Positions 1-11,041 of a stretch of 32,335 nucleotides of DNA are shown here, piece after piece. The stretch spans positions 1-32,335 of the forward strand of contig JAEOUH010000007.1 in NCBI GenBank assembly GCA_016839365.1. Direction: 5' to 3'. The notes beneath the pieces are model-generated. The model did not search any database and was not told where the DNA came from. It saw only the letters and a list, made by a program, of their open reading frames with translations. A program made the translations under genes and the position numbers. The DNA is from Candidatus Hermodarchaeota archaeon. GTDB taxonomy: Archaea; Asgardarchaeota; Hermodarchaeia; Hermodarchaeales; Hermodarchaeaceae. How positions within the stretch are numbered: the first letter of the stretch is position 1; every line of letters starts with the position of its first letter.

Positions 1-3000
1 AGGTGGGTTGATTTACCTTTACCCAGGTCAGTTGACATCTTCCGCATCTTACGGACCAGCCATGGAATGGCAAACACTCGGGTGTAAGCGAGCCAAGCGA
101 TGAGGATGATGATACCAATTATGGCAGCGATCAAACCCAGTCGGAGGCTGACTACGACGATGGGATGAAGGGCGACATTAACATTGACTTGACGTGTGGC
201 AACAGAGTAGATTAAGCCGGTTTCTGCTCGGAATTCCATAAGATAAGTGGTTTCGCCAGGAAAAGTGACCGAGGGCAGTGTATAGGTTCCATCTCCGTTA
301 TCCGTGAGAACCCAGCCGTGTTCATCGGTAACGAAGGGAATTATTACGGTAACCGTAGAACCAGAAATCGAGGTGTTATGATCCATATCCCAAAGGGTTA
401 TTGTGAATGTGTAAGCAGTACCGGTGATAGCTTGGATGTTTTGTTGAATTCCTCGGATTTCTGTTCGAACCAAAGTGACGGTGACTGGGAGTTGTAGGAT
501 TTGGGCGGTTTGATAGTTTTGCCGCGATAATGTGACATCGAGGTAGTAGTGGGCGGGAGAAACCTGGGTCATGTTGATTACAGTATAGTAAAGGCCAGTT
601 TCGCCATCGTAAGCTAGGGTACCACTTCCCAGTAACCAAGAATATGATCCGATTGCGCTTAATACCGTGTTGTTAGCATAATCGGTGTAGTTGAAGTAAA
701 GGTAAAGAACATCACTACGTGGGACGGTCCAAGGCTGGGAAATATTCAGCCAAGTGATGGCGCCGGTGTCGGGGAAGTACATCCAGGCATTCACAAGATT
801 TAGCTGAGTGGGTCGTGATTCGATGTAGATGGTGGCTGAACTGACTACGAATTCAAAACTGGGTGGATTCGCAGCAAAGGTTGCCATATAGACTGAACCG
901 GATGAAAAGGCCGTACTGGGCAACGTAATTGTGTACCATCCGGGTGTCCCATTCGCAAGCATGATGCCGGAGAACGGACCCCAGAAGTATTCAACAGCAG
1001 CCCCTGTGATTGGAGTGTCGTTGAATAGATTTCGGAAGTAAATATTTACTGTGAAGTTTAACCCCCAATAGACAACATAGGTGGTAGTTTCGGGCTCGAG
1101 GGCAGCTGGAAGCAGGGTAAGAATCAAGCTAATTGCCCGAGATTGGGAATTAACATTGGGGGAGGAAGCCGTGATGTAGATAGTATAGGATCCAGCAACT
1201 AATCCGGTGGTGTCAATTGTGACATTATAGATCCCCCCACCTACTTCAAAGTAGATGCCGTTTAGAGACCCAACGGAATAAGTGACGACTGCGCCTAGGA
1301 CTGGACCCCCCAGTAAAGTAGTATAATTCACCGGGAGACTGAAGGAGGATCCAATGGAAAAGTTCAGTGAATAGCGACCCGTTGGCACCGTATCGAGGAA
1401 ACTGGGAATTTGCTTGACATTGACGACTATCGATGCAAAGCTTTGAGCACAATTTGTACGGTTGACAAAGGCAGTCACATAGTGAACACCAATCGTTCCT
1501 GAAGAGGATAAGAACCAGGTGCCATAATAGCCTCCAGGTCCACTGGTATTACTGAAAGCACCTCCGATCCAGGAGAAGGTGACGTTGGCATCTGTGACAG
1601 GGTCACCGAAGATGGTTTCCACATAGATTTCAACCCAGAAGTTTTCACCATAGACAATATTAATGGGATCTGCCACCGTGACAGTCAGGTCAAGAGGGAG
1701 GGGATTAACGTAGAATTGGACAATGATTTGGCGGGTATTATAGAACGTTTTACTTACTGTTATAGTGACCGTATGAAGCCCAATACCGATGTTATCAGTT
1801 CTGAGGGTGAGAACGTACATGTCAGTAACATAGTATACATCTCCCCAGTCGCATGTAACCAGTGCCCCGGTAATGCCGATGCCCCCGTGATCTGTGTCAT
1901 TGTAGAAGAGGGGAATGCTGGTGTTTTGGCTCCAATAGATATTGGTCGGGTTGGTGAAGTCCAGATCGGTGAGAATTTCGCGAACGGTGACAGTAATATA
2001 GAATTGCTGAAATTGGTACCGTTCTTTGTAAATGGTGATATTGAGCACGAATGAGCCTAGGGAACCCGGACCAGTGCTGTTCAGCTCAATCTCATACCAG
2101 CCACTTCCAGTCTCAGTGATAGTATAATATCCAGCGGTCCAATTCGCAGTGACTTCTAGGTAAGGGACACAGCCAGTAATTCCCAAACTGTCAGCTTTTC
2201 GGAGATATTCAATTTGGATCGTAGCATTGTCCCGCCAGGGGACATAGACACCTGCGGCTTGTGGTGAATTAACTATGGTTTCAGCTACAACATCTATGAG
2301 GATGAAGCACGAAGCATCATCATAATGGCTTTTACTCGCATTCACGCGAATCCAAAACTGTCCCACATCACCGGCTTCAAGGGCATTAATCTCAGCTTCC
2401 CAGTATCCAGTTCCCGATACATAATGGAAGCTGATTGTGCCAGTTGTCCAGTTACCTTCAACTACCGCTGGGGGTTCAAGCCAATCATCGCTATCGATGT
2501 CTAAGTAACGGACTTTGGGGAACAAGGGCTGGTCTTCGTAGAAGGTTTCAATAATTGGCTCACGGGGTGTGAGACTTGTTGAATGGCGTACTGTGTAGGA
2601 GTAACTCAATTCTCCTGCTTCAGTCGAATTATCCCATCTTACGTAGATGCTATAGGTTCCTCCTGTTGTGTTCCAGCCATCATTATAGATGTTGGAAGAA
2701 TACACCCAACCGGCTGCAGTGGGAACAACCAGTTCAGTGTACCAGATGGCACCACCTGGTTGAAGGATTGTTATGTTGGCTTGGGTACCTGTTACACCAA
2801 AAGGAGGATTATCTGATCCATCAAGAATCCGAGCGGCAACACGAGTTGTATTATCTGCTCGGATTGCGGATGTAGGGGACCAGCCTCCGTCCCAAATTTG
2901 TAGTTCAGTTGAGTCAACATAGTTATGTGACTTTGCTTGAATCATCCAGTAACCATCAGGGCTAATGGTGATCGTTGTCGCTGGTATTGAGAAATAACCA

Positions 3001-4349
3001 TCTCCAAGATCCCCCCCTTGACATTGTCCTACTTTGTTAATGGTTGGAAGTTGGGGTTCGGAAAGAAAAGTGATGTCCCAGTCAACGGGGATGGTGAAGT
3101 TGAATACATCATTCCAGTATTTAGATGGCAAAGCAAGTTGATAATAAAAGGTCCAGGTTGTGTTTTGACCACTTTTGGCATTAAACCCTACACCAATCGC
3201 AGAGGGGTTTTGAGCATATACGGTTGAAGAGGTTTTGTTAGCAAAAAGGTTCAGGTCACATAAAGCGGTGACTTCAATATCCAAATCGGGATTGGGTGGA
3301 TTTGGAGTGGGTGCCCAGACTAGATTCGATAGGACCGGACTGGATGTCCACACGGAAGCGGGGATCTGTCTAATAAAACCGGTACCACGGCTGCCTTGAT
3401 CTTCAACAGCCAGTCCGTTCATGTAAAGATTAATTTCTGAAGGATAGACTTTGGTTTGCATGTAGAGCCAGACATTATCAAATTCGACGCGCATCCAGTT
3501 GTTGGAGCTGTAGCCGACGCTCATTGTAGAGAACATCCCGATCTCGAGTTCAACTGCACTATTGGGGAGATCAAATAAACCAGTATTAAGTTCGAGAAAA
3601 CCAGTATTATGCCAACTAGTATCTCCAACGGATTGAAAGCCTTTGGCCCAAACTTGTGAGCCATTAATGCGAACATACACATTGAAGAGGGCATTGCTTC
3701 CCCACGCACTGTCTACACGATAATCCATCTTCACAGCGATCCAAGCGAGATCGGATCGATTAACCGAAAAGGTTTGAGTCCACCAAGTTCGATCATTATT
3801 ATCATACCGATAATAGGAGCCATCCCAACGACCATCTTCTTGAACTCGAACGTATCCGTTACCATCAGGTCCACCACTTTGCCATGTTTGTGTGAACGTG
3901 TTGGCGCCACCTAAGTCATTGTATCCGCTAGTCCAGGAGGTAGCGGCCCCGTTGAAACTGGGATTTAACGCCCAAGTTCTATTTTCATATAGATCATAAA
4001 TGGAATAATCAAGCTGGTAACCGGTCCATCCCGGTGGGAGCACGACACTGGCAGAGTCTGTTCCAGGTGTCTGAGTCGCACTATCATAGAATAGAAATAC
4101 ATCTTGAGATCCGTCGGTTCGGTTTGCGACTTCATGAACTGATCGAGCTGTACCGATTCCATTGTAATCCGGACCAGGTACGGGAGGTGAGTTTCCCGGA
4201 GAAGAAGGCGCATATTCTGGTGCGGCGAGGGGATTATTGGTTGGAGAAGGCTGGAAAGCCTCGGGGGATGTCATTGAATGTACTGGTTGAGCCAGTAATG
4301 GAATTAGAAAACAACAAATAGCAAGGAGTATCATATACCGGGATTTCAT
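1..4349 (-). CDS. Giant secreted single-pass surface glycoprotein with Ig-like repeats (at least 1449 aa; 3' end runs off the window)
   Basis: Not in the ORF track because there is no stop inside the window. ATG at 4349 gives MKSRYMILLAICCFLIPLLAQPVHS (signal peptide) and a Pro/Ser-rich linker. The same frame reads ...ADPINIVYGENFWVEIYV... at ~1650 and ...GLIAAIIGIIILIAWLAYTRVFAIPWLVRKMRKMSTDLGKGKSTH at the window edge. Beta-rich ~100-aa repeats (D..N.PI.GA...G.Y.I.I...G.Y) and many N-X-S/T sequons. Confidence 0.9.
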   Translation of the reverse strand, partial: MKSRYMILLAICCFLIPLLAQPVHSMTSPEAFQPSPTNNPLAAPEYAPSSPGNSPPVPGPDYNGIGTARSVHEVANRTDGSQDVFLFYDSATQTPGTDSASVVLPPGWTGYQLDYSIYDLYENRTWALNPSFNGAATSWTSGYNDLGGANTFTQTWQSGGPDGNGYVRVQEDGRWDGSYYRYDNNDRTWWTQTFSVNRSDLAWIAVKMDYRVDSAWGSNALFNVYVRINGSQVWAKGFQSVGDTSWHNTGFLELNTGLFDLPNSAVELEIGMFSTMSVGYSSNNWMRVEFDNVWLYMQTKVYPSEINLYMNGLAVEDQGSRGTGFIRQIPASVWTSSPVLSNLVWAPTPNPPNPDLDIEVTALCDLNLFANKTSSTVYAQNPSAIGVGFNAKSGQNTTWTFYYQLALPSKYWNDVFNFTIPVDWDITFLSEPQLPTINKVGQCQGGDLGDGYFSIPATTITISPDGYWMIQAKSHNYVDSTELQIWDGGWSPTSAIRADNTTRVAARILDGSDNPPFGVTGTQANITILQPGGAIWYTELVVPTAAGWVYSSNIYNDGWNTTGGTYSIYVRWDNSTEAGELSYSYTVRHSTSLTPREPIIETFYEDQPLFPKVRYLDIDSDDWLEPPAVVEGNWTTGTISFHYVSGTGYWEAEINALEAGDVGQFWIRVNASKSHYDDASCFILIDVVAETIVNSPQAAGVYVPWRDNATIQIEYLRKADSLGITGCVPYLEVTANWTAGYYTITETGSGWYEIELNSTGPGSLGSFVLNITIYKERYQFQQFYITVTVREILTDLDFTNPTNIYWSQNTSIPLFYNDTDHGGIGITGALVTCDWGDVYYVTDMYVLTLRTDNIGIGLHTVTITVSKTFYNTRQIIVQFYVNPLPLDLTVTVADPINIVYGENFWVEIYVETIFGDPVTDANVTFSWIGGAFSNTSGPGGYYGTWFLSSSGTIGVHYVTAFVNRTNCAQSFASIVVNVKQIPSFLDTVPTGRYSLNFSIGSSFSLPVNYTTLLGGPVLGAVVTYSVGSLNGIYFEVGGGIYNVTIDTTGLVAGSYTIYITASSPNVNSQSRAISLILTLLPAALEPETTTYVVYWGLNFTVNIYFRNLFNDTPITGAAVEYFWGPFSGIMLANGTPGWYTITLPSTAFSSGSVYMATFAANPPSFEFVVSSATIYIESRPTQLNLVNAWMYFPDTGAITWLNISQPWTVPRSDVLYLYFNYTDYANNTVLSAIGSYSWLLGSGTLAYDGETGLYYTVINMTQVSPAHYYLDVTLSRQNYQTAQILQLPVTVTLVRTEIRGIQQNIQAITGTAYTFTITLWDMDHNTSISGSTVTVIIPFVTDEHGWVLTDNGDGTYTLPSVTFPGETTYLMEFRAETGLIYSVATRQVNVNVALHPIVVVSLRLGLIAAIIGIIILIAWLAYTRVFAIPWLVRKMRKMSTDLGKGKSTH

Positions 4350-4544
4350 TTAGGTGCACCCACCGTTATGGAAGCCTGCAGACTAATTGCTGGCGTAGCC
4401 ACTTAAGCTAGACTCACGAAGGGAATTTAAATAGATTTCCTGAAGTTTCTAATTGAAAAAAGCCGATTCAAATTTCGCATCTTTCACTTGCGCTAGTTTT
4501 CTTCTGAGATGATTGCCCCCTCTAATGTGAACCACGCATTAGCT

Positions 4545-7500
4545 CTATTCTTCGTCCTCATCAAGCGTCTCATACTGTTCTTTGAGGGTTTCGAAGACCT
4601 CTTCGCGTTCTTCAGGCGGTAAGCTGCTTATCTGTTTAAAGAGCGTCTTCTTCTCGCGTTCACTGAGTGCAGGAATAGCGTCGAGTCGGGCTTGGATGAT
4701 CTGCTCTTCCGCAGTTGTGTCCAGGAGACCCTCAGGTAGTGTTCTTGGCGCGCGTTCGAAACGGGTTCCATCGGCCATCTGGCGTTTCAGGTCTTCAAGG
4801 AACCAGACCCGGTCCTTGACGGGGATGCGCTTCATTTCTTCGAAGAGTTCAAGTTTTTGATCTCGGCCAAGGCCTTCGAGTTGGTCGAGTTCATGCCAGA
4901 TATCGATTTCTTCGGCTTCGCGTTCATCCACAGCTATGGCTAGGGGGACAGCTGTGGCGACGAAGGTGATTTTTACGCTATCATAGGCATCTTCCATGAA
5001 TTCGGTCATTTGATCAGGGCGCGTGGAAATACGGCGTTGGTCGCTACCGGACAGTTTGGGAGTCTTTCCTTTGCCAAGGGTAGTGGACATTTTCCGCATC
5101 TTTCGGACCAGCCATGGAATCGCAAAGATTCGAGTGTAAGCCATCCATGCGACGAGGAGGAGGATTCCGATGATGGCGGCAATGAGTCCGTAGGTAATGA
5201 TGTTACGAGTATATTCTGGGGTTCGTACGACTAATTGAAGGTTGTAGGTTCCGGTTTCGTGGTTATCCATAATGGCATTGATATTGAGTTCCCACACCCC
5301 CTCAAAGAAGACAGAAAGCCCTACGGCCTCATAAACGCCAGGTTCAATTTCTAGCATTTGGATGGGCTGAGGGTTAATGCCTGATATTTGAAGGTAAACA
5401 GATGCCCCTGAAATTGGAATCTGGTGAGCAAGGTCAGTAAAGTTAATTCGGACTCGAAAGAGATCACCGACATTGAGTTGATAAAATGATGTATTGAGGC
5501 TGGGATGAAGAAGATAGACTTCTGTGGGAATATTACGAACTTCAATCGTGAAACTCAGAATTGCTACCTCAAAGTTTTGCCCGCCAAAGCCCGCTGCAGC
5601 CGCATATGAACCGATGGGCACCGTGCTTGAATTGATGACGACCTGATAGAGGCCATTGCCGATGTATTCAATATTTTGATAGCCCACAATGTAGCTGATT
5701 TGCCCAGTTGCATCATGAATCGGTTGACCATTCATCCCAGTATAGTTGAATGTTAAAACAAGCAGGTCATTAATGGGCACCCATATCTCGTCAAGAGGTG
5801 TTTGGCGCATGCCCCAAATGCTTTGAGTGTATGCGTCGATAAGATTGGCTTCGGTGGGTTGCGGGGAGATTAGAAGCAGGATTTGGGCTGTGGCATCTTC
5901 ATAGGCGGCGATTTGAGCACGTATAGTGATGGTATAGGTTCCCACAGATTGATTCTCAACTTGAATGGTTATCGAATACCATCCATCTGTTCCATTGGGG
6001 AGTAAGGTGCCAGAAAAGCCTATTCCAAAATATTGGGGTGTTGCACCAAGAATTGGTTGGTTTTCCGCCGTATCGTTAAGATACACCGCGAATGTGAACG
6101 TGTCGTTCCAAAACACATTATGAGAAGTGAATTCGGGAATAATTTGCACCTCTCGGCCACGGATGAGAATGCTAACAGAAAGAAAAGCTTGCCAATAATC
6201 AACAGGTGCATTGGCATCTAGGAAGAAGCGAAGCTGGTAAGTCTCGTTGACCAGATATTTCGATGCCTCAAAGACCATCGAATAGTTACCAACCTCACTA
6301 GGGACAGAGGTAAGTTTGCCATAATCTACCATGTCTGCTGTTGAATTAAATATTATCCAAGTCGCAGTACCAAGAATAGAGGTTGCATTTACATCGATTC
6401 CTTGGCCAGATGGTGTTGAATCCAAATCCTTGTAAAAGACAACGAATGTTCGGCTTACATTATATGGGACTTCGACGAAGGGGACGGTTGTTGGCGCCTT
6501 AAGCTCTATTTCTGTTCGATGTTCTCGGGCTACGATCCCAATTGCCACATAGGTGTTTCCGGTATCACTCACAGTAATTGGAGCTGTTTGGTTATGATTC
6601 CGGAATTGATTGATGTAGCGAACATTGATATCATATTGATCGGGGGGAAGGTAGGCTGAAGCGGAGGGAGTGGTGTTCAAAGCAAAAACGGGAGCCGTTG
6701 ATGTGGCGTTATCGAGGAAGACTTCTGCGTATGTTGGAAGCAGACTATCATCAAACCAATCCCTAACCTCCAACGTCACGTAACTTAGTTGGCATTCAAT
6801 GGTAAGGGACCAGCCACGTTGGATGGTATGATCTAAGGCTATACTTGTGGTGTTTACGGTAAAGGTAATGCTTCCACCATAAGTCGAAAGGAGAGAATAG
6901 TTGGAAATTACCGTGTAGGTATCCGACGGTAATTTGAGAAAGACGATTGTGGCAACATCAGTCATGCCAGTCCGAACGAGGTGGCTTGTACTATTATAAA
7001 CGTAGATTGACACATTCGAGATATCGGTCCCCGCAACATCCTTGGTGATGCATGTCAGAACATTGTGTGCATAGAACTCCTCTTCACCGAGTTCTAACGA
7101 AATGGGTTGATTGACCTGCATTGAAAGAGAACGAGTTTCAGTAAAGTTGGTGCCAAAGGCTGAGGTATACAGGGTGTAATCATAGACGAAATGGTCTCCG
7201 TCGGGCATTACGAAGAAATCACCTTGGTGTCCTTCACGCAGAATCTGCTGCAACATAGTATTGTCTCCCATTCCTGTTACGGCAAGGGAGAGTACTTCCC
7301 AACCGACAGGGTTGACTTTCGCTATGAGTCCAACGGAGGGATCACTTCCACTTGCATTATCATACCAAGTCATCCAAGGCTCAACAGGAAAGTCTCGGCG
7401 ACGTCCATCTACAGATTCATTGTAGAGCCCGTATTTGGAGCCGTACCATGATTTACGGTTTTGTAGGGCATCAATGATGCCAGGGGTTCCAATCCCACAG

Positions 7501-8732
7501 GTAAAGGTCATAATGTGTGGCCAGTCCCCATAGTTTTTGACAGCACATTGTTGACCCGATTCTTGAGGATTAGCTTCAATATCGAGGAGTATTTTTACAA
7601 ACAGATTATCCCCGTGCCAATAGAAGGTGTAGGTAATGGTATAGTTAAAGAACCCATGGCTTCCCCAGCTCCTCGAATAAGAGTCTTGATACGGATCGGA
7701 GGGATAAACGGAGGAGCTGGTTTCGTAGCCTCCATCACTCGTGACAATCTTGATTCGGGTGAAGAGTGGTCCATCATCAAGGATCCAGACACCCGCCCCA
7801 TCCACCCAGGCTTCAGCTGGGTTATCTGGGGCAACGTTTGCACGGTTATTTGATTCCATTCCTGGATTGACCAAATATGGGTCAAGGGCGAATTCTCCTA
7901 AAAGCATGTATTGATCGGCGGATGTGCCGTTAGAAGTATCGAACGCGTCAGCATCACCATATCTAGCGGTGATTAAGCCACAGCAAGGTCCACCCCAATC
8001 AGATCCCCCACGGAGGGTGTCGACGAGGAGGATTGCTGAATGTTCGTATTGGCTGGCTGATGATCGGATGAAGATTGTGTCAACCCCAGTGTAATTTGTT
8101 GAGGTGACATCAGAATAGACCCAGGGCATGATAGTATCATCTGTTACGGGCCCATCAGCGGGTATGGCGTCAATGTGGTCAGTATAGGAGGGAGGTGTGA
8201 TTGGGTCATCGTCATAGTAGAGGTAGAACACTTCTTGGTGGTTCTGAGTGATGTTAACAAGGAAACAAACTGTACAGGAATCATAATAGCTACCTGTTTT
8301 GGAGACGTTCCAGATTTGGGATGGGACCTCATGCCAGGTTGTTAGATCCCAATAGGCAACTGCAATGATATTTTCCCGGGCTGTGTTAGGCGAAAAAGTA
8401 AGGTAGACATGGACGGGTTCCATTGTTCGGGAGGCGAGATTAGGTTCGAGGATTGTGATTTTCCGGCGATAATCGTATGAAGTGTTCCACCACTCTACAA
8501 GTGTTTCCCGTCCGGTTCCAAGTGGATTATCGGGTAATGGTGGTGAATTTTCATTAGTCGGCATGACAATGAGAACGTCAGATGGAGGGACAGGTTGCGT
8601 ACCAGGAGCGGAGGGGGTATACAATCCGCTTTCTGATAAAGTGGTTTGCTCAGGTAGAGTAAAAGTTGGAACTATAAACTGGCCTAGAAAGAATACGAGA
8701 AAAAGCCCGAGGGCTAGATGATTTTTACGCAT
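4545..8732 (-). CDS. Giant secreted single-pass surface glycoprotein: DUF2341-like N-terminal region, Ig-like repeat stalk, TM helix, ~190-aa cytoplasmic tail
   Basis: 1410-aa ORF. The likely start is ATG 8732 (MRKNHLALGLFLVFFLGQF signal peptide, AAGGAG upstream) rather than 8777. WWNTSYDYRRKITI resembles the WWN..W.YR..ITI motif that precedes DUF2341 domains. TM helix YGLIAAIIGILLLVAWMAY is followed by a basic then acidic helical tail. Confidence 0.9.
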   Translation of the reverse strand: MRKNHLALGLFLVFFLGQFIVPTFTLPEQTTLSESGLYTPSAPGTQPVPPSDVLIVMPTNENSPPLPDNPLGTGRETLVEWWNTSYDYRRKITILEPNLASRTMEPVHVYLTFSPNTARENIIAVAYWDLTTWHEVPSQIWNVSKTGSYYDSCTVCFLVNITQNHQEVFYLYYDDDPITPPSYTDHIDAIPADGPVTDDTIMPWVYSDVTSTNYTGVDTIFIRSSASQYEHSAILLVDTLRGGSDWGGPCCGLITARYGDADAFDTSNGTSADQYMLLGEFALDPYLVNPGMESNNRANVAPDNPAEAWVDGAGVWILDDGPLFTRIKIVTSDGGYETSSSVYPSDPYQDSYSRSWGSHGFFNYTITYTFYWHGDNLFVKILLDIEANPQESGQQCAVKNYGDWPHIMTFTCGIGTPGIIDALQNRKSWYGSKYGLYNESVDGRRRDFPVEPWMTWYDNASGSDPSVGLIAKVNPVGWEVLSLAVTGMGDNTMLQQILREGHQGDFFVMPDGDHFVYDYTLYTSAFGTNFTETRSLSMQVNQPISLELGEEEFYAHNVLTCITKDVAGTDISNVSIYVYNSTSHLVRTGMTDVATIVFLKLPSDTYTVISNYSLLSTYGGSITFTVNTTSIALDHTIQRGWSLTIECQLSYVTLEVRDWFDDSLLPTYAEVFLDNATSTAPVFALNTTPSASAYLPPDQYDINVRYINQFRNHNQTAPITVSDTGNTYVAIGIVAREHRTEIELKAPTTVPFVEVPYNVSRTFVVFYKDLDSTPSGQGIDVNATSILGTATWIIFNSTADMVDYGKLTSVPSEVGNYSMVFEASKYLVNETYQLRFFLDANAPVDYWQAFLSVSILIRGREVQIIPEFTSHNVFWNDTFTFAVYLNDTAENQPILGATPQYFGIGFSGTLLPNGTDGWYSITIQVENQSVGTYTITIRAQIAAYEDATAQILLLISPQPTEANLIDAYTQSIWGMRQTPLDEIWVPINDLLVLTFNYTGMNGQPIHDATGQISYIVGYQNIEYIGNGLYQVVINSSTVPIGSYAAAAGFGGQNFEVAILSFTIEVRNIPTEVYLLHPSLNTSFYQLNVGDLFRVRINFTDLAHQIPISGASVYLQISGINPQPIQMLEIEPGVYEAVGLSVFFEGVWELNINAIMDNHETGTYNLQLVVRTPEYTRNIITYGLIAAIIGILLLVAWMAYTRIFAIPWLVRKMRKMSTTLGKGKTPKLSGSDQRRISTRPDQMTEFMEDAYDSVKITFVATAVPLAIAVDEREAEEIDIWHELDQLEGLGRDQKLELFEEMKRIPVKDRVWFLEDLKRQMADGTRFERAPRTLPEGLLDTTAEEQIIQARLDAIPALSEREKKTLFKQISSLPPEEREEVFETLKEQYETLDEDEE

Positions 8733-8892
8733 CCCAAATCGCTCCTTTATGGAGTTGTGTGGAAGGTCGGTATCCACTAGCCGTGAAATGCGCTTTAACG
8801 CTTTTGTCTGCGTAGAGCAAAGATTTCGAATACTGTGGAATCTGCGAGGTATCGAATAGGGCTAGTTGAGTGTGAATTGGTTATGGAAGAGC

Positions 8893-9657
8893 CTATTTAT
8901 CCACCACTTTGGGATCACGTTTTTCAAAGAAGGCTTTGACTCCTTCTTTGGCATCTTCGGATTCAAAGGCTTCGCCGAAGTAGCGAGCTTCGAGCTTCAA
9001 ACCGTCTTCGATTGGCATATACAAAGCGCGTTTCATGGCTTTCTTTACGAGCTTGATTGCGACAAGACCCCGTTGCGCAATCCTTTCGGCTAAGTGCATT
9101 GCGATTGGAATGAGTTGGGATTGTGGAACGACTTTGTGAACGAAACTACCCATTTCAGCTGCGGGAACGATATCGCCGGTGAAGATGAGCTCCCTGGCGC
9201 GTTGGGGATCCATCCAGCGTTGGAGTCGTTGGGTTCCACCCCATCCTGGGATGATACCGAGTTTAATTTCGGTTTGTCCAAAACGGGCGGTTTCTGATGC
9301 TATAACGAAGTCGCAGGCTTGGCAGAGCTCCATCCCACCACCTAGACAGAATCCGTTCACGGCCATGATGAGGACTTTGCTATGGTTTTCTAAGAAAAGA
9401 GTAAACTCTTGACCCATCCGAGCGGTTTTTTCAGCACCCTTCGCATCCAAGCCTTTGAACTGTTTAATGTTTGCACCGCCAATGAAGAATTTGTCTCCAG
9501 CACCAGTGATGATGATGACTTTCGTGTCATCTTGATCCAATTCGGTAAGCATCTCTTTGAGAGTGGTGAAAATCTCTTGATCAAGGGCGTTTGCAGGTGG
9601 ATTATTGATAGTAATAAGCGCAATTTGGTCCTCTTTCTTTAATTCAACTTTAGACAT
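8893..9657 (-). CDS. Enoyl-CoA hydratase/isomerase (crotonase family)
   Basis: INNPPANAL, FIGGANI, GGGMELCQACD and QTEIKLGIIPGWGGTQRL; both catalytic Glu are retained. AGGAG RBS upstream. Confidence 0.95.
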   Translation of the reverse strand: MSKVELKKEDQIALITINNPPANALDQEIFTTLKEMLTELDQDDTKVIIITGAGDKFFIGGANIKQFKGLDAKGAEKTARMGQEFTLFLENHSKVLIMAVNGFCLGGGMELCQACDFVIASETARFGQTEIKLGIIPGWGGTQRLQRWMDPQRARELIFTGDIVPAAEMGSFVHKVVPQSQLIPIAMHLAERIAQRGLVAIKLVKKAMKRALYMPIEDGLKLEARYFGEAFESEDAKEGVKAFFEKRDPKVVDK

Positions 9658-9724: not shown

Positions 9725-9880
9725 TGCTAAAGGGATGAATAACCGTTGTCCGAAACTTACCCATCTAGGACACCCGAATGGCGCTCGGTTCCTGCATCAT
9801 CGATGGGCATTGGTCCAGAGGACCTGTAACCTCCCACCTCATGACAGGCGTTTAACGTCTCCGCCCAACTGGCGGCGACC
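9725..9880 (-). ncRNA. Putative TnpB omegaRNA (scaffold overlapping the tnpB 3' end plus a guide from the right flank)
   Basis: Minus-strand hairpins CCGCC-agttg-GGCGG, GGTCC-tct-GGACC and CCATTCGGG-tgt-CCTAGATGG lie in the last ~140 nt of the element. It is established that TnpB omegaRNAs derive from this region. Predicted guide starts TTATTCATCCCTTTAGC at 9742. Confidence 0.6.
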
Positions 9881-11041
9881 CCTGCTAAATTATTACTAGC
9901 ATTCAGGTCACGATCTATTGTAAGTCCACATTGGTCACATCTATAAACCCGTGTAGATAACCGCAGATTGGTCTTAACGTAACCACACTGTGAACACCTC
10001 TTCGATGAGGGGAAAAATCGTGGTGCTATTATCAGACTCGATCCATACCAAGCTGTTTTATATTCGAGCTGGCGCCGAAATTCATAAAAACTCGCATCTG
10101 CCACCGCATTTGCTACTTTATGGTTCTGCAATAAACCTCTCACATTTAGATTTTCAAGAACCACTACTGACTTGGTTTTCGCCAGCAGGGTCGTCGCTTT
10201 GTGAATAGCATCTTTACGAATGTTCGCAACCCGCGCATGGAGCTGCTGTAGCTTGCGTATTAACTTAGAACGATTCTTGCTCATTCCCTGTTTTCGTGAC
10301 ACGGACCTATTCAGCCTTTTGAGCTTCCGTGCGAAGGCTTGTAGTGCTCGGGGATTCTCTACGACGGTGCCATCAGACACTGTAGCCAAATGATGAATTC
10401 CAACGTCTACCCCTATAATTGGACCTGAATTTTCCACATCATTAATCCTTTCTTTTACCTGAAGCGACACAAACCAGCGACCAGCCTTTTCTGAAATGGT
10501 GGCCGAGAGGATATGAATGCGATCTGACTCGGAAGGCAGATAACTGCGTTCCTTCAAACGGAGCTGTCCAAGGCGTGGTAATTGAATGGAATTCTTGAAC
10601 ACGCGGATGACTCCTGTCAAACGGAAGGATCCAAGACCTTCCTTCCGGGACTTGAATTTCGGAAATCCCGGGGGCCCTCCATTTTTAACTCGACGAAAGA
10701 AGTGGTGAAACGCTCGGTCTAAATTGCGGAGTGCTTCTTGGGGTGCGCATTTGGATACCTCATACATCCAAGGAAAATGAGTCTGTTTAAGCTGGTTGAG
10801 TTTGCGGTGTAAGGCTATAGCATTGGGTGATTTCCCAGTCTGTTGGTAATCATTTATTTTTCGCTGTAGACCCCAGTTGTAAGCAAACCGGGCACAACCG
10901 GCATGCTTTCGGCAGAGGGTCTTCTGCCGATTATTCAGCTTGAGTTCGGTTTTATAACCACGCTGAATAATCATAGTTTCATCCCTCCTGTTTCCTAGTC
11001 TTTGCCTTCATTCGATGTTTCATATTGTGAGTATAAAAGGA
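9743..11041 (-). mobile_element. Non-autonomous (tnpB-only) IS607-like element; left boundary uncertain
   Basis: No tnpA fits in the 144 bp upstream of tnpB. The minus strand just after the ORF reads GATGCAGGAACCG...GGGTAAGTTTCGGACAACGG, ending in GG at 9743, which matches my recollection of IS607-type right ends. The left end is guessed at one of several upstream GG sites. Confidence 0.65.
9757..10974 (-). CDS. tnpB: RNA-guided endonuclease TnpB (IS200/IS605/IS607 OrfB)
   Basis: N-terminal GYKTELKLNNRQ...AGCARFAYNWGL; PGFPKFKS; RuvC-I GVDVG, RuvC-II VLENL, RuvC-III DRDLNA; Zn finger CSQC...CDQC. GGAGGG RBS. Confidence 0.97.
   Translation of the reverse strand: MIIQRGYKTELKLNNRQKTLCRKHAGCARFAYNWGLQRKINDYQQTGKSPNAIALHRKLNQLKQTHFPWMYEVSKCAPQEALRNLDRAFHHFFRRVKNGGPPGFPKFKSRKEGLGSFRLTGVIRVFKNSIQLPRLGQLRLKERSYLPSESDRIHILSATISEKAGRWFVSLQVKERINDVENSGPIIGVDVGIHHLATVSDGTVVENPRALQAFARKLKRLNRSVSRKQGMSKNRSKLIRKLQQLHARVANIRKDAIHKATTLLAKTKSVVVLENLNVRGLLQNHKVANAVADASFYEFRRQLEYKTAWYGSSLIIAPRFFPSSKRCSQCGYVKTNLRLSTRVYRCDQCGLTIDRDLNASNNLAGVAASWAETLNACHEVGGYRSSGPMPIDDAGTERHSGVLDG

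Follow-up and report, generated by a model that had tools for sequence, protein, structure and literature searches.

Giant surface proteins of Hermodarchaeota with different heads and one shared transmembrane and cytoplasmic module

Cultured Asgard cells have no S-layer and are covered by an amorphous coat of unidentified "complex surface proteins" (PMC9834061; PMC12993045; bioRxiv 10.1101/2025.11.06.686947), and the cell-cell contacts that figure in models of eukaryogenesis are ascribed to these proteins. The archaeal S-layer-type glycoproteins (haloarchaeal and Methanosarcina-type) combine a signal peptide, a large sequon-rich beta ectodomain and a single C-terminal transmembrane (TM) helix, and their anchors are short, being either an archaeosortase-processed PGF-CTERM segment or a TM helix backed by a handful of basic residues. 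Here we describe two neighboring genes in a 32,335-nucleotide stretch of DNA, henceforth the window, which is the start of contig JAEOUH010000007.1 (C14:1-32335, window base 1 being the contig end) in an 84% complete, 2.2 Mb genome of a Candidatus Hermodarchaeota archaeon. Their products, P0001 and P0002, are adjacent members of a multigene family of giant type-I surface proteins with different heads and one shared module that spans the membrane and fills the cytoplasmic tail. In the features listed above, and in a likely role as the outermost cell coat, they resemble the S-layer-type glycoproteins, and as membrane-anchored archaeal surface glycoproteins they are of an already known kind. Unlike the S-layer-type glycoproteins, this family occurs in multi-paralogue arrays with different heads, matches no sorting-signal model and carries a folded, conserved module of 170-250 residues in place of the short anchor. 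A conserved folded cytoplasmic module, its use by several paralogues with swappable heads, and a recurring juxtamembrane (JM) motif are undescribed in the resources that we searched. We lean towards the general reading that this module would couple a variable surface coat to the cell interior.

The tandem proteins and their shared module

Two long open reading frames (ORFs) on the minus strand occupy bases 3-8777 of the window. By eye, both products show a signal-peptide-like N-terminus, a Pro-rich linker, a large ectodomain and one TM helix near the C-terminus, in agreement with the preliminary description of this DNA, which had recognized tandem giant surface proteins of this layout from the sequence alone. 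A BLASTP comparison of the two proteins likewise bore out its account of unrelated heads, weakly similar but colinear stalk ends and a near-invariant TM/JM segment: no similarity was found between the heads, the last ~490 residues align at 31% identity (E = 2e-47), and 36 of 42 residues are identical in the TM/JM block. The last ~162 codons of P0001 are lost at the contig end. A public copy of this protein, P0027 (1606 residues, beginning MILL), matches P0001 at 99% identity along 1444 residues and extends 162 residues further; this extension is the same module as the tail of P0002; hence protein 1, as represented by this copy, carries the full shared tail. The start of P0001 itself is probably the second ATG, at 4334. 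In 40-residue windows P0027 and P0002 are 15-42% identical in the stalk, 85% in the TM/JM block, 42% in the linker that follows, 70-77% in a first cytoplasmic helical bundle and 31-39% in a second. Because these values range from 15-42% in the stalk to 85% in the TM/JM block, the similarity is not uniform along the pair, as simple duplication would have it.

An alignment of 25 tails from the host genome and its relatives (A1; residue numbers follow A1 and the tail model) gave as family-wide invariants: 1) W22, at the cytoplasmic end of the TM helix, with P32, V35 and R36 in the JM helix; 2) L53 and R64 in the linker, and also E96; 3) L108, L122, M126, I129, W136, F137, D140 and Q144 in bundle 1. 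Near-invariance extends to R27, I31, W33, R39, R60, P89, I104, K119 and R134. Elsewhere in the TM helix, conservation is limited to the array paralogues, whose TM sequences are near-identical. Thus the near-invariance earlier ascribed to the whole TM segment holds within the array subgroup, but across the family the invariants lie at the cytoplasmic interface, in the JM helix and in bundle 1. An AlphaFold2 model computed on A1 (mean predicted local distance difference test score, pLDDT, 73; predicted template modeling score, pTM, 0.30) joins the TM and JM segments in one unbroken helix (residues 2-46), then has two short helices and an extended hydrophobic stretch, then three-helix bundle 1 (94-147, with helices at 94-109, 116-128 and 131-147 and pLDDT ~80-85), and finally a disordered linker and a second three-helix bundle (164-220). 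The TM helix of P0002 is followed by 172 residues, and ~170-250 conserved residues lie behind it across the family. In P0002 the two short helices and the hydrophobic extended stretch make up the linker, which closes at a conserved Pro; bundle 1 reads EEREAE..IW.EL..LEGLG..QK.ELFEEMK.IP.KDRVWFLEDLK.QM; and the second bundle is variable, duplicated or absent among paralogues.

The membrane-proximal part was further characterized in 125 distinct TM/JM segments, gathered with a regular expression that fixed positions 0, +2 to +4 and about +9 and left -7, -5, -3, +6, +13, +15, +16 and +19 free. Hydrophobic residues stand at +2, +3, +6, +9 and +13 after the conserved Pro, with basic residues between them, a pattern by which the post-TM segment is a predicted cationic amphipathic helix closed by K-G-x-x-P. 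This Pro-initiated JM helix spans ~16 residues, and an aromatic/Arg belt lies at the inner membrane interface. The outer half of the TM helix has a face of small residues (G-24, A-21/-20 and G-17 relative to the conserved Pro; 51-77% small). The signature of the module, namely a C-terminal TM helix, a Y/W-x-R-h-F-S/A-h-P-W/K-h-h-R JM helix, K-G-x-x-P, a linker and a bundle with R-x-W/G-F...Q, is present in full in P0002 and P0027, and in P0001 as far as the contig reaches. The tail is net acidic (D+E 43 against K+R 30), its basic residues being clustered beside the membrane. In keeping with the type-I topology, it contains no sequons, and the ectodomains are 2-2.5-fold enriched in N-x-S/T sequons (29 in P0002 against 11.6 expected from composition, and 33 in P0027 against 16.4); proteins of this family are probably N-glycosylated.

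Pfam searches with the whole proteins and all 25 tails returned no family above the cut-off, and the best tail matches, DUF3106, BET, CSTF_C and HeH (E of about 0.004-0.01), all fell below it and were discarded. Likewise, NCBIfam gave no match with P0002, P0027 or the tail, the tail profile recovered nothing from PDB sequences (best E 0.39), and Foldseek with the tail model returned nothing at E<=0.001. VIA-align with the same model gave Z<=6.8, which is in the chance range for helical models, its top matches being protein-A-type three-helix bundles or long single helices. Readings of the bundles as helix-hairpin-helix, SAP or helix-turn-helix (HTH) domains were dropped, as no tool supported them and the tail is acidic; Pfam recognized no DNA-binding, kinase or anti-sigma domain in it, and full-text literature searches found no description of the tail module. 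Given that the arrangement, with basic residues behind the TM helix of a surface glycoprotein of archaea, superficially recalls the known PGF-CTERM type of C-terminal sorting or anchor signal that archaeosortases process, this explanation deserves mention. Against it, no Pfam or NCBIfam sorting-signal model matches, the PGF-like motif is missing before the TM helix in both P0001 and P0002, and the helix is followed by the long conserved tail rather than by a few basic residues at the extreme C-terminus. We therefore reject this explanation and give it next to no credence.

Selection, copy number and lineage range

Of the 126 nucleotides of the TM/JM block, 27 differ between the two genes (7, 1 and 19 at first, second and third codon positions, respectively), in keeping with the earlier remark that the differences fall mostly at third positions. 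By the Nei-Gojobori method the proportion of synonymous differences (pS) in the block is 0.56 (synonymous divergence, dS, about 1) and that of nonsynonymous differences (pN) 0.096; the corresponding values for the aligned stalk are 0.77 (saturated) and 0.51. Codons for identical residues are also identical in DNA in 15 of 32 cases in the block against 47 of 123 in the stalk (Fisher p=0.42), and hence silent identity is not in excess in the block. We also compared the block in orthologues of both gene types (A and B) from other genomes. Pairs of A and B have pS of 0.56-0.89 (mean 0.69) within genomes and 0.53-0.87 (mean 0.71) between genomes, with pN about 0.10 throughout, and the tails cluster by paralogue type across genomes rather than by genome. 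As the two genes are tandem paralogues, their identity in the block could in principle be a by-product of recent duplication or gene conversion. This is very improbable and we reject it: synonymous divergence in the block is high next to a low pN, within-genome pS equals between-genome pS, and the block is kept across species in orthologues of each type. Conservation of the TM/JM block reflects strong purifying selection without concerted evolution, and the preference of the preliminary description for protein-level selection over recent copying was well placed.

These data also bear on the possibility that the module is essentially a passive anchor, in which the TM/JM segment would be only a stop-transfer, positive-inside and interfacial-helix element and the bundles would add solubility or spacing. 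The cationic amphipathic helix directly behind the TM helix, the aromatic/Arg belt and the presence of a similar short motif on giant proteins with quite different distal tails (see below) are all in its favor. However, topology rules demand charge and not sequence, the P, W and V-R of the JM helix and the W-F..D...Q of bundle 1 are invariant despite saturated synonymous divergence, and bundle 1, at a distance of ~100 residues from the membrane, equals the JM helix in conservation. Hence we regard an essentially passive anchor as improbable, and coupling of the coat to the interior remains the reading that we favor.

The host genome encodes at least five carriers of the module: P0001, P0002, one on C58 (cut), one on C46 (2310 residues) and one on C23 (cut). 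Three of these five are cut at contig ends (window 1-3, C58:1-1609 and C23:1-2370). The C58 gene closes the array to which P0001 and P0002 belong, and the genes downstream of it (a nitroreductase, a 184-residue ORF and an ADP-forming acyl-CoA synthetase) also follow the array in two relatives; therefore the array was broken by assembly at the repeated tails, and repeated tail and stalk sequences evidently break this assembly. At least one array member of ~2100-2300 residues, present in the relatives, is missing between the window genes and C58. As a protein query, the P0002 tail found matches in 14 of 14 genomes of the genus and 4 of 4 of the sister genus, up to 8 in number, and profile A1 found up to 9 per genome, the relatives having 1-9 copies; many of the matches form tandem arrays, and the open frames that carry them are 1400-7100 residues long. 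The motif is thus not confined to the pair in the window, and the search for TM-plus-tail paralogues that the preliminary description called for recovered at least five in the host with different ectodomains.

Profile A1 was run over 301 genomes of the phylum. It matched in 18 of 18 genomes of the host family (f1), in 70 of 76 of the family with Thorarchaeota-named members (f6, more distant), in the single f26 genome sampled and, weakly, in 7 of 68 of f9; no match was found in the other families sampled. The distant matches, which are named Thorarchaeota at NCBI, keep the plan of TM helix, JM helix and two bundles. Against 1.84 billion representative proteins the same profile gave 84 matches at E<=1e-3, nearly all of which end within a few dozen residues of the protein C-terminus, and the short proteins among them are probably fragments. 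At least one of the exceptions, the repeat protein P0123, is a bacterial GA-module protein and was set aside as a false positive; a second repeat protein, P0095, was matched as well. A pattern scan of 185,579 species genomes recovered loci mostly in Hermodarchaeota-named metagenome-assembled genomes (MAGs), including Candidatus Hermodarchaeum yapensis. All of the closest public homologues are annotated as "hypothetical proteins" and come from Asgard MAGs, labelled variously Promethearchaeota, Hermodarchaeota/Hermodarchaeia, Thorarchaeota and Hodarchaeota.

Proteins of other Asgard lineages were collected by head similarity alone. Where homologues of the P0002 head have a C-terminal TM helix, the cytoplasmic tail behind it is of another type, 48 to ~300 residues long, and in many cases it ends in a conserved LVLLEQKRYKAERS...LRRKML helix. 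In P0150-P0171 (Sigyn/Loki/Hod-labelled) the tail is ~250-300 residues long, with a Pro-rich middle, a near-invariant LVLLEQKRYKAERS...LRRKML C-terminal helix and the post-TM motif RFKYPPMIRKI; judged by these features, it looks like another undescribed Asgard tail family. The post-TM motif in these other tails, F/Y-x-x-P-P/W/K-h-h-R-K-h...R/K-G, is similar to that of the module. In profile-profile comparison with the Loki/Sigyn-type tails the module matched over 36 columns (TM end and JM segment; E 5.5e-4, probability 30%), and comparison with the Hel-type tails gave nothing. As only these 36 columns match, at that probability, the comparison suggests rather than shows that the JM motif is homologous across Asgard classes. 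A TM/JM profile derived from sequences of Hermod and Thor type matches gene 1 at C14:9-131 (E 1.4e-21) and occurs in 17/18 genomes of f1, 72/76 of f6, 40/68 of f9, 4/4 of f2, 3/3 of f20 and 1/1 of f26; there were no matches in f4 (0/29), f21 (0/21), f13 (0/11) or f27 (0/11). The Helarchaeota-named proteins P0175, P0177, P0179 and P0181, which have a P0001-type head, possess a different tail without the JM motif, consisting of a ~110-residue post-TM region that is longin/roadblock-like by eye (with a single weak match to Fuz_longin_1, E 0.043) and a terminal winged HTH (PF24409, E 8e-8 to 3e-5).

A bolder proposal, which we think unlikely, is a shared Asgard juxtamembrane code (aromatic-x-basic...P-x-h-h-R-K-h...K-G..P) on giant surface proteins that would stand in front of lineage-specific folded cytoplasmic modules and wire the coat to intracellular machinery. 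The modules behind it may be the three-helix bundles in Hermod- and Thorarchaeota-type proteins and, in Loki/Sigyn-labelled ones, the ~290-residue tail with its conserved C-terminal helix. If true, such a code would connect the coat to the cytoskeleton, to trafficking/GTPase platforms or to gene regulation, and, in the lineage closest to eukaryotes, would represent a forerunner among prokaryotes of the way in which eukaryotes couple receptors to adaptors.

Heads, stalks and neighboring genes

The coordinates of the two genes and their parts are collected in Table 1. The stop codon of P0002 is at 4545-4547 and its likely start is the ATG at 8732, giving a protein of 1395 residues; its orthologues (1395-1414 residues) start at the equivalent Met.

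Table 1. Features of the two giant-protein genes in the window
Feature	Position	Strand	Description
Gene 1 (P0001)	3..4349	-	Giant type-I surface protein; 1449 codons in window, open at 3' end
Gene 1 TM helix and basic JM helix (GLIAAIIG...LGKGK, 42 codons)	15..140	-	
Gene 1 ectodomain: Pro-rich linker, Trp/Asn-rich beta head, stalk	141..4274	-	
Gene 2 (P0002)	4545..8777	-	Complete giant type-I surface protein; ORF opens at GTG 8777
Gene 2 head (residues 96-580)	7038..8492	-	Predicted N-terminal beta-sandwich and galactose-mutarotase-like beta-supersandwich
Gene 2 stalk, beta-rich, sequon-rich	5190..7037	-	Last ~490 residues colinear with gene 1 stalk, ~30% identity
Gene 2 TM helix and Pro-started, predicted cationic amphipathic JM helix (42 codons)	5064..5189	-	
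Gene 2 cytoplasmic linker (TPxLS...R...R)	4932..5063	-	From A1 alignment and AlphaFold2 tail model
Gene 2 three-helix bundle 1	4770..4931	-	Most conserved cytoplasmic element
Gene 2 three-helix bundle 2, degenerate copy	4548..4721	-	Behind disordered linker

Among orthologues the P0002 head is 80% identical, nearly at the level of the tail, and the stalk 69%, falling to 55% beside the membrane. Head homologues at 35-52% identity occur in Sigyn-, Loki- and Hodarchaeota-labelled Asgard proteins, and in their alignment (A2) numerous columns of Trp, Gly, Asp, Asn and His are invariant. AlphaFold2 on A2 (pLDDT 81, pTM 0.88) predicted an N-terminal beta-sandwich and a galactose-mutarotase-like supersandwich. 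With this model Foldseek found the PL26 exo-rhamnogalacturonan lyase and GH38 (E 2e-8), and VIA-align found OpgD/OpgG (9e08_A; Z 16.5, 252 aligned, root-mean-square deviation 3.6) and PL26 (5xqj_G; Z 16.1, 341 aligned, model residues 4-470). PL26 (PcRGLX) and OpgD/OpgG, the latter being GH186 proteins active on beta-1,2-glucan, thus share with the P0002 head the beta-sandwich followed by the supersandwich, a fold group that also takes in the C-terminal part of GH38; the likeness is one of fold alone, at 9-11% sequence identity and without a Pfam match, and PL26 has further domains that are absent from the head. The ESM Atlas leads were PcRGLX (0.83-0.90), which the fold search later upheld, and Big_1 (0.83). 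By its predicted fold the P0002 head is a domain of carbohydrate-active type. Hence anchored glycan-binding or glycan-cleaving proteins are, on the model, as possible as a "receptor". The DUF2341-like head of the preliminary description was not recovered: Pfam gave no match with residues 80-330 or 331-580 at E<=5 or with the whole protein at E<=0.1, and DUF2341 (PF10102) was accordingly discarded.

The head of P0001 is a different beta domain, 50-70% identical to the 2300-residue array members and 27-39% identical to giant proteins named Helarchaeota and Thorarchaeota. Invasin_D3 (PF09134) matches P0001 weakly (17.5 bits against a cut-off of 33) and the C46 paralogue at 35.9 bits (E 1e-8), and precomputed PF09134 matches exist on several homologues. 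The suggested stalk of Ig-like repeats was not confirmed: self-BLAST of the P0001 and P0002 stalks found nothing, and the signs of repetition amount to the weak Invasin_D3 match in P0001 and to shifted-register alignments between the proteins.

Upstream, the Hermod-type arrays are flanked by an enoyl-CoA hydratase and a TnpB transposase, and downstream by the nitroreductase, the 184-residue ORF and the acyl-CoA synthetase mentioned above. In the window the TnpB-type gene (OrfB_IS605, Cas12f1-like TNB and HTH_OrfB_IS605; IS605 family) lies at 9757-10974 (-), ~1 kb upstream of the array, and is adjoined by the enoyl-CoA hydratase gene (8893-9657); otherwise the window consists mainly of genes for metabolism of beta-oxidation type. 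At the Thor-type loci L109-L118 a convergent lipid-type cluster lies downstream of tandem ~2590-residue giants in 10 of 10 sampled genomes: LPG_synthase_TM, PHP, a UbiA prenyltransferase and DUF362 are found in all ten, a metallophosphoesterase and a SLOG protein in nine, and a Ras-like GTPase in seven. The 184-residue ORF, P0186 (C58:2528-3079), has four Cys, its C-terminus is helical, and neither Pfam nor PDB gave a match. At least 14 Hermod-type genomes, drawn from both genera, have it ~1.7 kb past the last array tail, and its family, the only co-distributed candidate, was found in 16 of 18 genomes of f1, in 23 of 26 of f6 and in 0 of 107 elsewhere. As P0186 is not adjacent to the giants in Thor-type genomes, it is only a weak partner lead, and its range could be explained by shared ancestry alone. 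The C46 giant is followed by a 1146-residue protein with about nine PAS domains and no output domain (C46:74736-78173), which also follows the orthologous giant in six related loci, and then by a dual-specificity phosphatase (C46:78273-78737).

Possible roles of the module and comparison with known systems

If the module couples the coat to the interior, the JM helix would lie on the inner leaflet against anionic lipid head groups, and bundle 1 would dock either a single shared partner, in the cytoplasm or associated with the membrane, or the tails of neighboring molecules. Such docking would tie the variable coat to the interior for positioning, retention or signaling, much like the tails of integrins and cadherins. 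Because bundle 1 is almost the same in all paralogues, a shared partner is likelier than paralogue-specific ones. Several points weigh against this reading: 1) three-helix bundles are generic, and the fold is uninformative on function; 2) the tail model, with its pTM of 0.30, leaves the arrangement of the domains unfixed; 3) the neighborhood hunt found no partner, nothing being common to Hermod-type and Thor-type loci, and the neighbors are metabolic and differ between the two; 4) the conservation of basic residues behind the TM helix could stem partly from stop-transfer and topology constraints on very large ectodomains. As the hunt yielded no partner, be it membrane, cytoskeletal or ESCRT-like, we place less weight on any specific one.

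A rival proposal is transmembrane signaling, in which the tail, somewhat like the RsgI anti-sigma sensors discussed below, would sequester or release a cytoplasmic regulator when a glycan engages the head, or would itself be freed by regulated proteolysis. The predicted carbohydrate-active-type fold of the P0002 head, with its many invariant Trp, Asp, His and Asn residues across Asgard homologues, would fit, as would the cytoplasmic winged HTH that ends the Helarchaeota-named homologues of the P0001 head and the conserved PAS protein and phosphatase behind the C46 paralogue. Nevertheless, the near-identity of bundle 1 in all paralogues speaks against regulators specific to each paralogue, no DNA-binding, kinase or anti-sigma domain is recognizable in the acidic tail, and no regulator gene is adjacent, the PAS/phosphatase synteny having been seen within one genus only. 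We hold signaling of this type to be unlikely.

In another alternative the neighboring tails and TM helices would bind each other as homo- or hetero-oligomers and so organize a non-crystalline coat from inside. Consistent with it are the small-residue face in the outer half of the TM helix, the near-identical TM sequences of array members, the several co-encoded paralogues, and the lack of an S-layer in Asgard cells (PMC9834061). However, the small-residue pattern is not invariant in the family, only W22 being so within the TM helix, and there is no coiled-coil evidence. We rate self-assembly of the coat as quite unlikely, and the coupling of coat to interior as the better general account.

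In Hermod- and Thorarchaeota-type lineages this family is a concrete molecular candidate for the coat. Its conserved folded intracellular module makes surface-to-interior coupling in Asgard archaea a testable question, and the head of predicted carbohydrate-active type hints at what at least one member may bind or cleave. The modular system of the preliminary description stands in so far as a common module lies under variable ectodomains in at least five host paralogues, but its "receptor" is only an analogy.

Two described systems with comparable logic help to frame it. The RsgI proteins of Clostridium thermocellum are multi-paralogue polysaccharide sensors that place different carbohydrate-related ectodomains on a common single-TM cytoplasmic module; this module is an N-terminal cytoplasmic anti-sigma domain, and each gene stands beside that of its sigma factor. 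The Asgard module differs in its opposite topology, in having no adjacent regulator and in that no anti-sigma domain was detected. Integrins and cadherins, whose conserved cytoplasmic tails bind adaptors, have no sequence or fold relationship to the family by Pfam, PDB, Foldseek and VIA-align, and the tail here is instead a pair of three-helix bundles. The resemblance is therefore one of analogy only, yet in logic it extends to the type-I topology, the conserved basic membrane-proximal segment, the tail conserved by purifying selection and the set of paralogues with different ectodomains.

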